Assembly (NCBI GenBank): GCA_902552755.1
Contig: CACDHV010000003.1
Coordinates: 921 to 64,920 of the forward strand
Direction of reading: 5' to 3'
Source: an uncultured Pelagibacteraceae bacterium
Lineage (GTDB): Bacteria > Pseudomonadota > Alphaproteobacteria > Pelagibacterales > Pelagibacteraceae
Length of the DNA: 64,000 nucleotides
A model generated the notes under the pieces. The model ran no database searches. It was given only the letters and a program-made list of their open reading frames with translations, and was not told the origin of the DNA. A program made the position numbers and the translations under genes. This document shows, one piece after another, positions 7,980 to 15,045 of this stretch (the first letter of the stretch is position 1; every line of letters begins with the position of its first letter).

Positions 7980-9609
7980 ATGAACCCTTATGAAACAAAT
8001 TTGGATAAAAACGAAGCCAATTATGTTCCATTAACCCCTTTATCATTTCTAGAAAGAGCAAAAGATATTTATCCAAACTACGAAGCAGTAGTTTATGAAA
8101 GTAGGAAATACACTTGGAGTGAAGTTTACAAAAGATGTATTAAGTTTGCTAGTGCATTAGATAAATTGGGAATTAAAACAGGTGATACGGTATCTGTCTT
8201 GGCTTTTAACACACCTGAAATATTTGAAGCGCATTATTCCATTCCTATGGTTGGAGCAGTTATAAATGCCATTAATACAAGACTAGACTCAAAAACAATT
8301 AGTTATATTTTAAATCACAGTGAAGCGAAGGTGCTAATTGTAGATAGACAATTTCATGATGTAGTAAAAAAAGCTTTAGAAGAAGTTAATTCAAAAATTA
8401 CTATAATTGATATAGATGATAAAGATGCAAAGCTAACCGACTCAAAAAAATATAGGATCTTTGGAATATGAGGAGTTTTTAAATTCTGGAGATGAAAATT
8501 TTAAATGGAAAATGCCAAAAGATGAGTGGCAAGCTATAGCATTAGGTTATACTTCTGGAACAACTGGTAATCCAAAAGGAGTTGTTTATCATCATAGAGG
8601 ATCATATTTAATGGCAACAGGAAGTGCAGTTGCATGGAATATGCCTAATCAGTTAAATTTTTTATACACAGTACCAATGTTTCATTGTAATGGCTGGTGT
8701 TATCCTTGGACAATGTCAATGATTCATGGTCGAGTAATTTGTCTGAGAAATATTGATGTAAAAAAGATATTTGAATTAATTGATAAATATGAAGTTACTC
8801 ATTTTGGTGGAGCACCAATAGTTTTAAACATGTTAGCTAATGCACCTGAGGATCAGCAAAAGGAATTAAAAAGGAAGGTATATGTATTAACAGCAGGTGC
8901 TCCTCCTCCTAGTATAATTTTTGAAAAAATGCAAAAGTTAGGCTTTGAAGTAATGCATGTATATGGTCTTACAGAAACCTATGGTCATATCTTGCAGTGT
9001 GCATGGAATCAAGAATGGGATGAATTAGATCAAAATAACCAAAACGAAATAAGAGCAAGACAAGGCGTAAGGTATCCCAATACAGAAGGCGTCATTGTAA
9101 TGGACCCTGAAACCATGAAGCCAGTTCCTCATGATGGAAAAACAATGGGTGAAATTATGATTAGAGGAAATGTGGTGATGAAAGGTTATTTTAAAGATAA
9201 AGAAGCGACAGAAAAATCAATGGATGGAGGATGGTTTCATTCTGGCGACTTAGCTGTAACTCATCCAAGTGGTTACATAAAAATACAAGACCGATCAAAA
9301 GATATCATAATTTCAGGAGGAGAAAATATTTCATCTATCGAAATTGAAAATACGATTTCAAAACATCCTGCTGTATCACTGGCAGCTGTTGTAGCAAAAC
9401 CAGATGAAAAATGGGGTGAAACACCTTGTGCTTTTGTTGAATTAATCGAAGGAAAATCAAGTTCAGAGGAAGAAATTATTAAATTTTGTCGAGAAACTCT
9501 TGCTGGATTTAAACTTCCTAAGAAGGTTGTGTTTACTCCGCTACCAAAGACATCCACTGGAAAGATTCAAAAGTTTGAACTGAGAAAACAAGCTAAGGAA
9601 TTAAACTAA
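7980..9609 (+). CDS. dmdB: Acyl-CoA synthetase, likely MMPA-CoA ligase DmdB; split by an extra A in the A7 run at 8444-8450
   Basis: The two ORFs (7980-8471, 8461-9609) join as ...DSKNIGSLEYEEFL when one A is removed. YTSGTTGNPKG, YGLTET, GWFHSGD, LPKTSTGKIQK. Confidence 0.85.
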
Positions 9610-10789: not shown

Positions 10790-11800
10790 ATGAATATAGC
10801 AATAGTAGGAGCGACAGGAAACGTAGGTCGAAAATTAATAGAAGTTTTGGAAAAAAAAAACTTTCCAATAACAGAGGCGTACTTAGTTGCGTCTCCAAAT
10901 AGTGAAGGAAAAAAAATTAATTTTTTAGGAAAAGAGCATACTGTTAGTAATTTAGAACAATTTGATTTCTCAAAAGTAAAAATTGCTTTTTTTGCAGCTG
11001 GTTCTTCAATTGCTGAAAAATGGGCACCGATCGCAGCAGAAAAAACAATTGTAATAGATAATTCAAAATTCTTTAGAAAAGATCCAGAAATTCCTTTAAT
11101 TGTTCCAGAGGTAAATTCCAAAGAATTACCTAAATTTAAAAATAAGAATATTATAGCAAATGCCAATTGTTCAGTAATACCAATAGTTGTAGCTCTCAAA
11201 CCATTACATGATTTGTATAATGTAAAAAGAATAGTTGCATCAACTTATCAATCTGTATCAGGAGCAGGCAAGGCAGGAATGGATGAACTTATATCCCAAA
11301 CTAAAGAAGTCTTGGAAAATAAAGATGTTGAGTCAAAAAATTTTACTAAGCAAATTGCTTTTAATGCTATACCACATATCGATAGTTTTCTTGAAAATGG
11401 AAGCACAAAAGAAGAACAAAAAAATCATGATGAGGTAAAAAAAATTTTAGATAGTAAAATTAATATAACATCTACTTGTGTAAGAATCCCTGTTCTTGTT
11501 TCTCACTCCATAAGTGTGAATGTTGAATTTAACAAAAAACATGACTTAGAAGAAATAAGAAATGTCTTATCATCATCACCAGGATGCAAGGTAGTTGATG
11601 AGCAAAAAGATGGAGGATACATTACGCCTGTTGAAGCTGAAGACAAATTTGAAACATTCATATCAAGAATTCGTGAGGACTCTTCTCAACCAAATTCAAT
11701 TAATTTGTGGGTTGTGTCTGATAACTTATTAAAAGGTGCTGCACTTAATGCAGTTGAAATTGCTGAGGCTTTAGTAGAAAAAGATTTTTATGGAAAATAA
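10790..11800 (+). CDS. asd: Aspartate-semialdehyde dehydrogenase
   Basis: VGATGNVG, NANCS, STYQSVSGAG, TCVRIPV, DNLLKGAALNAV. Confidence 0.97.
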   Translation: MNIAIVGATGNVGRKLIEVLEKKNFPITEAYLVASPNSEGKKINFLGKEHTVSNLEQFDFSKVKIAFFAAGSSIAEKWAPIAAEKTIVIDNSKFFRKDPEIPLIVPEVNSKELPKFKNKNIIANANCSVIPIVVALKPLHDLYNVKRIVASTYQSVSGAGKAGMDELISQTKEVLENKDVESKNFTKQIAFNAIPHIDSFLENGSTKEEQKNHDEVKKILDSKINITSTCVRIPVLVSHSISVNVEFNKKHDLEEIRNVLSSSPGCKVVDEQKDGGYITPVEAEDKFETFISRIREDSSQPNSINLWVVSDNLLKGAALNAVEIAEALVEKDFYGK

Positions 11801-12173
11801 AAATCCAATATCGCCACATATACAAATTTATAATTGGCACATTTCCTCACTGGTTTCAATTTCACACAGAATAACTGGTATAATAAACTTTTTCACTATA
11901 ACTTTAATAGGTATATGGATAGCCTCTTTATTATTGGGTGAACAGAGTTATCAGAATATTAATTTGTTCTTATCATCTTTTATAGGCAAATTTTTTTGTC
12001 TTGGAATTATTTGGTCTTTTTCATTTCAAATGCTTAGTGAAATAAGACATTTGTTTATGGATTTAGGTTATGGTTTTGAGCAAAAAACTACAAAAATAAC
12101 AGGATTAATTGTGCTAATCGGATCATTTCCACTTACTGTAATAATCTTTATTATTGGAAGAGTTTTAATTTAA
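11790..12173 (+). CDS. sdhC: Succinate dehydrogenase membrane anchor SdhC (heme-ligand His replaced by Gln)
   Basis: PISPHIQIY, SISHRITG, IRHLFMDLGYG; three hydrophobic helices. Confidence 0.95.
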   Translation: MENKNPISPHIQIYNWHISSLVSISHRITGIINFFTITLIGIWIASLLLGEQSYQNINLFLSSFIGKFFCLGIIWSFSFQMLSEIRHLFMDLGYGFEQKTTKITGLIVLIGSFPLTVIIFIIGRVLI

Positions 12174-12496
12174 TGGGATCAGTTACAAAAAAATGGTTAT
12201 TCTTAAAAGTAAGTTCAGCAATATTAGTGCCATTAATGCTATGGTTTGCGATTAATCTAGCTTCTATTTACGACAAAGGCTTTGAACAGGTATTACTGTT
12301 TGTGTCTTCTCAACCTTCAAAGTTTTTGTTAAGTCTTTTTTTGATTTTTGCATATTTTTTCTCTGCACTAAGTATTAGTGAGGTTTTTGAGGACTATATC
12401 GAAGATCAAAAAATCAAAAATGCCGCAAATAAATCTTTAAATATCTTTGCTATAGTATTTCCATTATTAATCATTATCTTAATATTTAGTTTATAG
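12173..12496 (+). CDS. sdhD: Succinate dehydrogenase membrane anchor SdhD (contains no histidine)
   Basis: Three hydrophobic helices, VFEDY motif, lies between sdhC and sdhA. Confidence 0.9.
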
Positions 12497-12498
12497 TT

Positions 12499-14274
12499 AT
12501 GAGTGCATACAAAATTATTGATCATGAATATGATGTTGTTGTTCTAGGTGCAGGTGGTTCTGGGCTAAGAGCAGCTGTAGGATTAAGTGAAGCGGGATTA
12601 AAAACTGCATGTGTCTCTAAAGTGTTCCCAACCAGAAGCCACACCTCCGCAGCACAAGGTGGTATTTCAGCAGCACTTGGAAATATGGGTGAAGATGATT
12701 GGAGATGGCATATGTACGACACTGTTAAAGGTGCTGATTGGTTAGGAGACCAGGACTCTATAGAATATTTATGTAAGGAAGCGCCAGCTGCTGTTCTAGA
12801 ATTAGAAAAGTATGGAGTTCCATTTAGCAGAACAGATGATGGCAAAATTTATCAAAGACCTTTTGGTGGCATGACAAAAAACTATGGAAATGAGACTGTG
12901 CAAAGAACTTGTGCAGCAGCAGATAGAACTGGACATGCAATACTTCACACATTGTATGGACAAGCTTTAAAACATAATACCGAATTTTTTATAGAATACT
13001 TCGCACTAGATTTAATAATGAAAGATGGAGCATGCAAAGGTATAATTGCTTGGAACCTTAATGACGGAACAATTCACAGATTTAAGTCCCATACAACAAT
13101 TATAGCAACAGGTGGTTATGGAAAAGTGTATTACTCAGCTACTTCAGCTCATACGTGCACTGGAGATGGAAATGCTATGGCTTTAAGAGCTGGATTACCA
13201 TTACAAGATATGGAATTTGTACAATTTCATCCAACAGGTATTTATGGTCATGGAACATTAATTTCAGAGGGTGTAAGAGGAGAAGGTGGTTATCTAGTAA
13301 ATTCAAAAGGAGAAAGATTTATGGAGCGTTACGCTCCTAAAGCAAAAGATTTAGCATCTAGAGATGTTGTGAGTAGATCAATTGCAGTAGAAATTAACGA
13401 AGGCAGAGGTATAGGAAAAGAACAAGATCACGTTCATCTTCATATTGATCATTTGGACCCAAAAGTTATAGATGAGAGGCTTCCAGGAATATCAGAAGCA
13501 TCTAAATTATTTGCAAACGTTGATGTAACCAAGGAGCCTATACCAGTAGTACCCACAGTGCATTATAATATGGGTGGAATACCAACAAATTATAAAGCAG
13601 AGGTTCTTACATTAAATGGATCTGAAAAAACTGTACCCGGGTTAATGGCTATTGGCGAAGCAGCATGTGTTTCTGTTCACGGTGCAAATAGATTAGGTTC
13701 AAATTCATTAATAGATTTAGTAGTTTTTGGAAGAGCTGCAGCGAAAAGAGCAGCAGAGTTAGTAAAACCCGGAATGAAGCATGAAGAAATTGATAAAAAT
13801 GAAACGGATAGATGTATAGATAGATTTGATAAATTAAGAAACTCAGAAGGTTCAAATCCAACATCTGAACTAAGACTTTCAATGCAAAAAACGATGCAAT
13901 CAAAATGTGCTGTATTTAGAACTGAGAAAACATTAAAGGAGGGTGTTGATGAAATTAGAAAACCTTATGATGGAATGGACTCTCTTTCTGTAAAAGATAA
14001 GTCATTAATCTTTAATACTGATTTAGTTGAAACACTAGAATTTGACAACTTAATAAGACAAGCAATAACTACAATGGACTCTGCGTATCATAGAAAAGAA
14101 AGCAGAGGAGCTCATGCTAGAGAAGATTTTCCAAAAAGAGATGATGAGAATTATATGCAACACACTCTGTCTTGGTGTAATGGTTCAAAAACTAAAATTA
14201 ATTATAGACCTGTTCATAGATCAACACTTACAAATGATGTGCAATATTTTCCTCCACAGGAAAGAGTGTATTAA
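12499..14274 (+). CDS. sdhA: Succinate dehydrogenase flavoprotein
   Basis: [47 protein letters not shown]. Confidence 0.98.
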
Positions 14275-15045
14275 TGGTTCAATTAAATTTACCTGCAAAC
14301 TCAAAGGTAGAAAAAGGTCAATATTATAAAGATAAAACAGGTTCAAAAAATATTAGAAAAATAAATATTTATAGATGGGATCCATCTAAAAATGAAAATC
14401 CAAGACTTGATACTTATGAAGTTGATATGGATAATTGTTCATCTAAAGTCCTTGATGTTTTAAACAAAATAAAAAATGAAATAGATCCTTCTATAGCTTA
14501 CAGAAGATCTTGTGCTCATGGAGTTTGTGGATCTTGTGCGATGAATATGAATGGAAAAAAATGGTTTAGCATGCACGAAGTCCCATTCTGAACTGGATGG
14601 AGATATTGATATTTATCCTTTACCACATCTAAAAGTCTTAAAAGATTTAATCGGTGATTTAAGCACATTATATAAACAATATGAGTCTGTTGAACCTTGG
14701 TTAAAAACCTCAAAAGTAAATGATAAAGAGAATATCCAATCTAAAGACGACAGAGCAAAATTAGATGGATTATATGAATGTATTATGTGTGCATGTTGTT
14801 CAACGTCTTGTCCAAGTTATTGGTGGAACGGTGAAAAATATTTAGGTCCTGCAGTTTTACTTCAAGCTTACAGATGGATAATTGATAGTAGAGACGAGGA
14901 CAGAAAAGAAAGACTAAAAAAGGTTGCTGACGAACTTAAGCTTTATAGATGTCATACTATCTTGAATTGCACAAATGCTTGTCCCAAGGGCTTAAATCCT
15001 GCAAAAGCTATTGCAGAGATAAAGAAAATGCTTGCAACAGCTTAA
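14274..15045 (+). CDS. sdhB: Succinate dehydrogenase iron-sulfur subunit; split by an extra A in the A7 run at 14555-14561
   Basis: [10 protein letters not shown] then NGKNGLAC after removing one A; [17 protein letters not shown]; [17 protein letters not shown]. Confidence 0.95.

Follow-up and report, generated by a model that had tools for sequence, protein, structure and literature searches.

The role of the heme in complex II (succinate dehydrogenase) is a long-open question. In Escherichia coli, the distal propionate of heme b is bound by SdhC His91, SdhB His207, and SdhD Arg20, while the proximal propionate, related to the distal one by pseudo two-fold symmetry, is bound by SdhD Gln78 and SdhC Arg31 (PMC3290573). 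A heme-free E. coli variant is active and supports growth, and the heme does not curb superoxide (PMC3290573). Complex II of wild-type Saccharomyces cerevisiae has no heme by cryo-electron microscopy or in spectra (PMC12508127, PMC13066397; PDB 9KPS, 9QDL); in its Sdh4 subunit, Tyr108 replaces the axial histidine and Glu112 the glycine four residues after it, bridging Arg97 in place of a propionate (PMC12508127, PMC13066397). Natural heme-free enzymes of type C are known for yeast and two protists, and no free-living bacterium is among them in the searchable papers. The subject of this study is the sdhCDAB genes, above all those of the two membrane anchors SdhC and SdhD, in a window of 64,000 nucleotides from an uncultured Pelagibacteraceae bacterium (contig CACDHV010000003.1, positions 921 to 64,920). 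An initial annotation of this window had described both anchors as lacking their heme ligands. The window genome (G000) has 1.0 Mb at 29% GC, is 74% complete, and belongs to the genus Pelagibacter (SAR11), here g1.

Judged from sequence comparison, Pelagibacter sdhCDAB very probably encodes a working, heme-free type C succinate dehydrogenase. The reasons are that both axial ligands and both glycines four residues after them (position +4) are replaced, that the two histidines were never found together in g1, that two alphaproteobacteria outside SAR11 without ferrochelatase (G275 and G186) show the same kind of change, and that yeast complex II is naturally heme-free with similar substitutions. 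In an alignment of SdhC to the E. coli SdhC chain 1NEK_C (E 1e-12), Gln80 falls on His84 and Glu84 on Gly88, and the H84M mutant chain 2WU2_C differs at the Gln80/His84 column. A single-sequence search of the PDB with SdhD gave no match, but a profile of 51 SdhD sequences aligned to residues 11-112 of E. coli SdhD with no gaps, pairing Lys12 with Arg20, Phe63 with His71, Ser67 with Gly75, Glu70 with Gln78, and Asp74-Tyr75 with Asp82-Tyr83. The four replacements at the ligands and glycines had been reported by the initial annotation, and the codons and E. coli alignments agree with it, as does the translation of SdhD, which contains neither histidine nor cysteine. The change of the SdhD arginine to lysine is likewise present, but is not diagnostic alone, lysine also occupying the Arg20 position in 7 of 133 pairs of anchors that keep both histidines (His/His pairs). 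The positions of all features are collected in Table 1.

Table 1. Features of the sdhCDAB locus (positions in the window) and of the slot loci discussed in the text
Feature	Position	Strand	Basis
sdhC, membrane anchor, 127 aa	11790..12173	+	TIGR02970 118 bits (cut-off 52.3); model pLDDT 88.8
SdhC Ser23-x2-His26-Arg27, quinone-site motif (E. coli Ser27, His30, Arg31), kept	11856..11870	+	Ser23 and Arg27 invariant in 51 sequences
SdhC Gln80 (codon CAA) replacing axial His (E. coli His84)	12027..12029	+	alignment to 1NEK_C
SdhC Glu84 replacing His+4 Gly (E. coli Gly88)	12039..12041	+	alignment; locus counts
SdhC His87 (E. coli His91), propionate contact, main candidate for an alternative ligand	12048..12050	+	alignment; E. 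coli role from PMC3290573
sdhD, membrane anchor, 107 aa	12173..12496	+	TIGR02968 45.6 bits (cut-off 41.8); model pLDDT 94.1
SdhD Lys12 replacing Arg (E. coli Arg20, distal propionate contact)	12206..12208	+	profile alignment
SdhD Phe63 (codon TTC) replacing axial His (E. coli His71)	12359..12361	+	profile alignment
SdhD Ser67 replacing His+4 Gly (E. coli Gly75)	12371..12373	+	Ser in 33, Thr in 18 of 51 g1 loci
SdhD Glu70 (E. coli Gln78, proximal propionate contact)	12380..12382	+	profile alignment
SdhD Asp74-Tyr75, quinone-site pair (E. coli Asp82-Tyr83), kept	12392..12397	+	invariant in 51 sequences
sdhA, flavoprotein, 591 aa, intact	12499..14274	+	TIGR01816 950 bits (cut-off 727)
sdhB, iron-sulfur subunit in two frames, 11 cluster Cys and His207 equivalent	14274..15045	+	extra A in run 14555-14561
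5-aminolevulinate synthase slot loci	L337:3541-4128 (P0121); L336:3535-4752

The axial histidine of canonical type C enzymes is absent from each anchor, and the other sequence characteristics of type C are present. SdhC and SdhD are two small anchors of their own families with three membrane helices each, according to models and fold search. The single-chain models of both are confident and match the anchors of known enzymes, the best fold match of SdhC being chain C of the E. coli complex; such models carry no information on heme. The gene order is sdhCDAB, and SdhA falls in the succinate dehydrogenase family. Assignment to the heme-free type D (FrdABCD) was rejected: against FrdD, SdhC reaches 22.1 bits (cut-off 25), versus 99 against Sdh_cyt, and SdhA, with 526 bits on fum_red_Fp (cut-off 933), belongs to the sdhA_forward family. 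The proximal quinone site is conserved (SdhC Ser27 and Arg31, SdhD Asp82 and Tyr83, SdhB His207 in E. coli numbers), as the initial annotation had stated for the anchor residues. Rough ungapped estimates of the ratio of nonsynonymous to synonymous substitution (dN/dS) have medians of 0.20 over 345 pairs of sdhC and 0.23 over 355 pairs of sdhD, and values near 0.2 point to continued purifying selection on both genes. One anchor pair for complex II was found in G000, no second, heme-binding pair being detected in this 74% complete genome; a gene for SdhE/Sdh5 is present.

The replacement of the ligands is a conserved trait of the whole genus. The SdhC family was matched in 136 of 151 Pelagibacterales genomes, a tally that includes the unpublished and unread G111, although no claim depends on unpublished genomes; 71 genomes were read, taking in the 30 best scores and 40 others that cover all genera and low scores. 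In the 39 genomes of g1, counting G000, SdhC has Gln and Glu at the ligand and +4 positions throughout, and SdhD has Phe in 36, Tyr in 2, and His in 1. Both g5 genomes have His and Glu in SdhC with Phe and Thr in SdhD, and the sister genera g2, g3, and g4 keep both histidines and both glycines in 10 of 10. In the second family, g7 keeps both histidines in four genomes (a fifth sequence is cut), g6 (10 genomes) and g8 (4) have Tyr in SdhC with Cys or Ser at +4, and the single g9 genome has Asn and Asp there; the SdhD histidine is kept in g6, g8, and g9. When 401 g1 genomes were scanned by pattern, 279 showed the SdhC motif, with His at position 80 in three and, by eye, Glu at +4 throughout the 150 matches listed. 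The three genomes with His80 all have Glu84, and their SdhD residues are Phe, Asn, and Phe. The corresponding SdhD scan matched 81 genomes, of which 72 were dropped after the matched letters were read (an unrelated gene or chance); the remaining nine g1 genomes have the SdhD histidine, all with Gln80 and Glu84 in SdhC. Both histidines together were seen in no g1 genome examined. SdhC position 81 varies in g1 (Met, Ile, Val, Thr, Ala, Leu), and SdhD position 63 toggles between Phe, Tyr, His, and Asn.

At position +4 of SdhC, Glu84 is present in 51 of 51 g1 and 2 of 2 g5 loci, while glycine occupies it in 133 of 133 His/His pairs; this set had Gly here as a criterion of selection, and the Pelagibacterales and alphaproteobacteria tallies contain no His/His pair that departs from it. 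SdhD Glu70 is found in all 82 Pelagibacterales SdhD sequences that reach the column, with or without ligands, versus 5 of 122 other alphaproteobacteria. These others come from a control of 150 alphaproteobacteria, one per family, 125 of which match the SdhC family; 122 were read, leaving aside G001 (itself SAR11), the unpublished G182, and one weak match. Both histidines are kept in 119 of the 122. The three exceptions, G274 (L103), G275 (L106), and G186 (L107), have one ligand replaced and genomes of 1.1-1.4 Mb. Neither ferrochelatase nor 5-aminolevulinate (ALA) synthase is present in G275 or G186, whose genomes are both 100% complete, and both anchors of G275 carry Glu at +4. The stretch of G274 examined shows no SdhD next to SdhC. 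Two small-genome controls with both histidines, G175 and G231, have both ferrochelatase and ALA synthase.

If the heme is absent, electrons would pass from succinate to FAD, through three iron-sulfur clusters, and directly to the quinone, and the four-helix bundle would be held together by side chains in place of the porphyrin. The centre of the pocket would be filled by Phe62 and Phe63 of SdhD with Phe79 and Gln80 of SdhC. SdhC Glu84 would be a stand-in for the distal propionate among SdhD Lys12, SdhC His87, and the SdhB His207 equivalent, as a counterpart of yeast Sdh4 Glu112 mirrored through the two-fold axis, and SdhD Glu70, which faces SdhC Arg27, may likewise take over from a propionate there. 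Present throughout the order, Glu70 is a possible pre-adaptation. The initial annotation appealed to active heme-less mutants of E. coli and yeast, an argument that holds for the E. coli variant (PMC3290573) and needs amending for yeast, where the wild type itself is heme-free and no mutant is involved. Its proposal of a natural heme-free type C enzyme is well supported by sequence.

Several points weigh against heme absence and its proposed mechanism. The contact of Glu84 with Lys12 and His87 is deduced from symmetry, and single axial-ligand mutants of the E. coli enzyme can reportedly retain heme. SdhC keeps His10, His17, His26, His87, Cys70, Met81, and Met90, among which His87, His26, Met81, and Cys70 are possible ligands. 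Heme b might then still be bound through a changed or single ligand (His87, His26, Met81, or Gln/water), and the retention of His87 in all g1 loci read and of His26 in most, together with the propionate contacts Arg27, His87, and the SdhB histidine, is consistent with this. Nevertheless, such binding is improbable: two ligands are gone and not one, both +4 glycines, which nearly all His/His pairs have, are replaced, Met81 is variable, and some g1 members have Thr or Asn in place of the usually conserved His26 of the HRxTG motif (L071 in G069, L143 in G374, L181 in G586). His87 corresponds to a propionate contact of E. coli that ordinary enzymes also have (PMC3290573), and in yeast one replacement of His by Tyr, together with Glu at +4, is enough to remove the heme (PMC12508127, PMC13066397).

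Decay of the anchors, or sequencing error at the codons, is a negligible prospect, despite at least two probable homopolymer slips nearby (in sdhB and in an acyl-CoA synthetase gene at 7980-9609), and was rejected on the grounds that the same residues recur in independent contigs from the runs as well as in genomes numbering in the hundreds, that dN/dS is about 0.2, and that the quinone site is invariant. Here too the initial annotation was right: among the matches listed, 118 of 120 close homologues read Gln-x3-Glu and two are without a motif match, and the Gln80 codon is spanned by contigs of three public runs (two DNA, one RNA). Those contigs show only two differences among those listed (11982 and 12199). 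They end at the Phe63 codon, so that read support there is less firm than support from the genome survey. The stretch is contained in 20 of 24 listed runs from 11 studies, six of the runs being RNA, although contigs are uninformative on expression level. The labels of these 20 runs are marine or seawater, except for one coded organism.

The claim that all SdhB cysteines are kept is correct in that the 11 cysteines are present, but they are found only across two frames, a split that the initial annotation missed. It is caused by an extra A in the seven-base run, a base missing from the contigs of the three runs; sdhB is in frame with its cluster cysteines intact in 19 of 19 loci of relatives, and the break is most likely an assembly slip. 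The AMP-binding acyl-CoA synthetase gene is divided into two open reading frames near an A run at about 8444-8450, probably also by a homopolymer slip.

The history of the loss was followed in gene trees of SdhA (about 385 residues; an IQ-TREE quick run and FastTree). In three trees g5 branches outside g1, with IQ-TREE support of 99 for g1+g5 and 96 for g1, and this position, with His and Glu in SdhC and Phe and Thr in SdhD of g5, suggests that the SdhD histidine and both glycines changed first, a state kept in g5, and the SdhC histidine later. A second, independent loss of both ligands would be represented by L276/L280 (G674, G675), which are nested among His/His genera and have Tyr-x3-Glu in SdhC and Asn in SdhD. 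About four ligand losses in Pelagibacterales can be proposed from the sequences: g1/g5, L276/L280, g6/g8, and g9. The SdhC glycine at +4 is replaced in each, by Glu, Glu, Cys or Ser, and Asp, respectively. The sister lineage L274, L277-L279, L282, and L283 keeps both histidines; we take it to be deep-water SAR11, for which the literature search found nothing in confirmation. The g3 genomes, which also keep both, group with records that bear the title Candidatus Fonsibacter, and this genus lives in freshwater (PMC7527133). The 13 g1 members seen with His at one ligand position are scattered over the tree with weak support and may reflect either retention or regain.

For the cause, a scarce supply of heme that favours loss of a dispensable cofactor is tentatively preferred over neutral loss and iron sparing, at somewhat less than even chances, because no recognisable ALA-forming enzyme was found. 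ALA synthase scores over cut-off in 10 of 10 g2-g4 genomes, but in 0 of 16 g1, 0 of 3 g5, and 0 of 10 second-family genomes (counts that leave out G677). A Fonsibacter-type synthase query returned nothing at E 1 in five complete g1 genomes, in a search with no positive control. A switch to the C5 pathway was rejected: in 39 of 39 genomes glutamyl-tRNA reductase stays below its cut-off, as does HemL in the five of five genomes examined for it. The hemB gene is found in 38 of 39 genomes, missing only from the incomplete G000. Every ligand-loss SAR11 genome tested is without both known ALA routes, including the incomplete G674 and G675, and among 11 published SAR11 genomes tested that bear the synthase, none has lost a ligand. 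A general loss of heme use was also rejected, as ferrochelatase, a hemE-hemH-hemJ cluster, and a cytochrome b with its four histidines are all in G000; in this cluster the labels hemE and hemJ are presumptive, being our own reading of the sequence. Pelagibacteraceae are said to use only the Shemin pathway (PMC11480375), a statement that the ALA synthase counts contradict for most marine members. SAR11 is described as being without a heme transporter that is present in AEGEAN-169 (PMC10308909), and import of ALA is possible.

Weighing against scarce heme supply as the cause are the His/His genomes with no detected ALA synthase (2 of 2 in g7, five incomplete sister genomes, and G678), the presence of both ferrochelatase and ALA synthase in G274, which has nevertheless lost the axial SdhC histidine, and the small number of independent loss events, about four, behind the counts of ligands and synthases. 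Neutral loss, with Glu70 already stabilising the bundle in the SAR11 ancestor and repeated drift in streamlined cells, is an alternative of some plausibility, if hardly an even bet. It is consistent with the restriction of Glu70 largely to Pelagibacterales, with the small genomes of all three outside exceptions, with the toggling of SdhD position 63, and with a heme that in E. coli is non-essential for activity and does not curb superoxide (PMC3290573). It fits poorly with the retention of both histidines in the small-genome controls G175 and G231 and in all g2-g4, and with the absence of ligand loss from the 11 synthase-bearing SAR11 genomes.

Iron sparing, in which heme was dropped under the iron scarcity of the surface ocean, is unlikely, and the adaptation to iron-poor water proposed by the initial annotation is weakly supported. 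The genus is marine by the labels of the runs, repeated loss suggests selection, and the retention of both histidines in the Fonsibacter-like g3 is compatible with iron sparing without being specific to it; the sister lineage taken to be deep-water SAR11, with both histidines, points the same way. However, of the ten iron atoms per enzyme the heme accounts for one, fixation of the trait throughout the genus means that it cannot track local iron, the four-histidine cytochrome b and ferrochelatase are kept, and in the second family g7 has both histidines beside relatives with one lost. The main text of a Pelagibacter iron-limitation study is silent on succinate and sdh (PMC2864753). Ligand loss goes at least as well with the absence of ALA synthase. 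Nickel superoxide dismutase, considered as a marker of iron sparing, was uninformative, with no match in 39 genomes or 14 controls.

The place of the missing synthase is occupied by another gene. In the Fonsibacter-type genome G019, ALA synthase lies between rpiB-glyA and a divergent hemB; the same slot holds a 196-aa PF05118 2-oxoglutarate/Fe(II) oxygenase (P0121) in 15 of 15 g1 genomes and in G146, G669, G672, and G676. G000 aside, oxygenases of this type occur in 28 of 28 genomes without the synthase and in 0 of 10 that have it. They lie directly behind katG in 8 of 11 synthase-less genomes with that gene, where the g2 genome G001 has its synthase, and hemB is present in 72 of 80 metagenome loci. 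A viral contig carries hemB followed by a P0121-type oxygenase (L544:4111-5579). The closest solved relative of P0121 is a beta-hydroxylase (PDB 7V4F).

If marine SAR11 have lost both known routes to ALA (ALA synthase; glutamyl-tRNA reductase with GSA aminomutase), a heme-free complex II could be a symptom of a third that uses P0121, for example by oxidation of carbon 4 of 5-aminovalerate, and a low ALA flux would then favour repeated dropping of the one dispensable respiratory heme; this is rather doubtful. Most phage copies of the oxygenase lie among baseplate genes, which counts against an ALA route. Two copies outside SAR11 neighbour a gene of threonine-aldolase type, and in SAR11 the oxygenase gene runs in the same direction as glyA, which fits a role in glycine supply instead. 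P0121 is a candidate for either an ALA route or a glycine-supply enzyme. One-for-one replacement of the synthase across bacteria is not supported: outside SAR11, the synthase accompanies a full-length homologue in five of five alphaproteobacteria, G676 has both, and the oxygenase is beside a heme gene in one of 80 viral loci among those tested.

Other arrangements of these genes were noted. In the second family (L379-L383, L344), genes of polyamine-type transport, glutamine-synthetase-like genes, and aldehyde dehydrogenase genes surround the oxygenase, and the neighbours of hemB are a gene similar to FAD amine oxidases and one for a hydroxyacid dehydrogenase. In G001 (L342), katG-hemA-hemC-hemB-hemE-hemH-hemF-hemJ form a compact cluster whose hemB is divergent (34% to the Fonsibacter-type), which suggests that the heme pathway of g2 was replaced by transfer. 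The katG gene is patchy in g1 (6 of 16) and present in 13 of 13 g2-g5 genomes, one of them under cut-off. L550-L552 have a viral cassette of heme oxygenase, bilin reductase, and ALA synthase, as published in PMC11480375.

One of the most abundant bacterial groups of the ocean likely runs its succinate dehydrogenase without heme. SAR11 offers a natural series with both histidines, one, or none, and with repeated losses and convergent compensation, in which the structural role of the heme is testable by swaps. If the link to ALA is true, a dominant ocean heterotroph has either an unrecognised nutrient need or an unknown first step of heme synthesis. The literature search, with subscription papers mostly outside it, found no report of heme-ligand loss in SAR11. 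It found none of the missing ALA step, which Kim 2021 (PNAS, on heme auxotrophy) may already record, and the available portion of PMC11707229 has nothing on SAR11 quinones.

Among known systems, E. coli FrdABCD (type D) has two small anchors and no heme, but its anchors belong to different families. The complexes of Tetrahymena thermophila and Perkinsus marinus are natural cases of membrane-heme loss from the type C lineage (PMC13066397, PMC12508127), but are divergent mitochondrial enzymes in supercomplexes and are compared here by description only. E. coli SdhCDAB (PDB 1NEK) shares gene order, subunit families, fold, and quinone-site and cluster ligands, and differs in having heme b bound by two histidines (His84, His71) with Gly at +4; its heme-free forms are engineered. 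Yeast shares two type C anchors, an intact proximal quinone site, an aromatic residue for the axial ligand in the D subunit, and an acid residue for a +4 glycine. The histidine of yeast Sdh3 is kept, bonded to Sdh4 Tyr108, whereas both histidines are gone in Pelagibacter, and the yeast glutamate belongs to the D subunit, where it takes the proximal propionate site, while that of Pelagibacter is in the C subunit at the distal mirror site. Heme absence is measured in yeast and deduced from sequence in Pelagibacter, where at least one axial histidine is replaced in type C anchors, as in the heme-free yeast sub-group.

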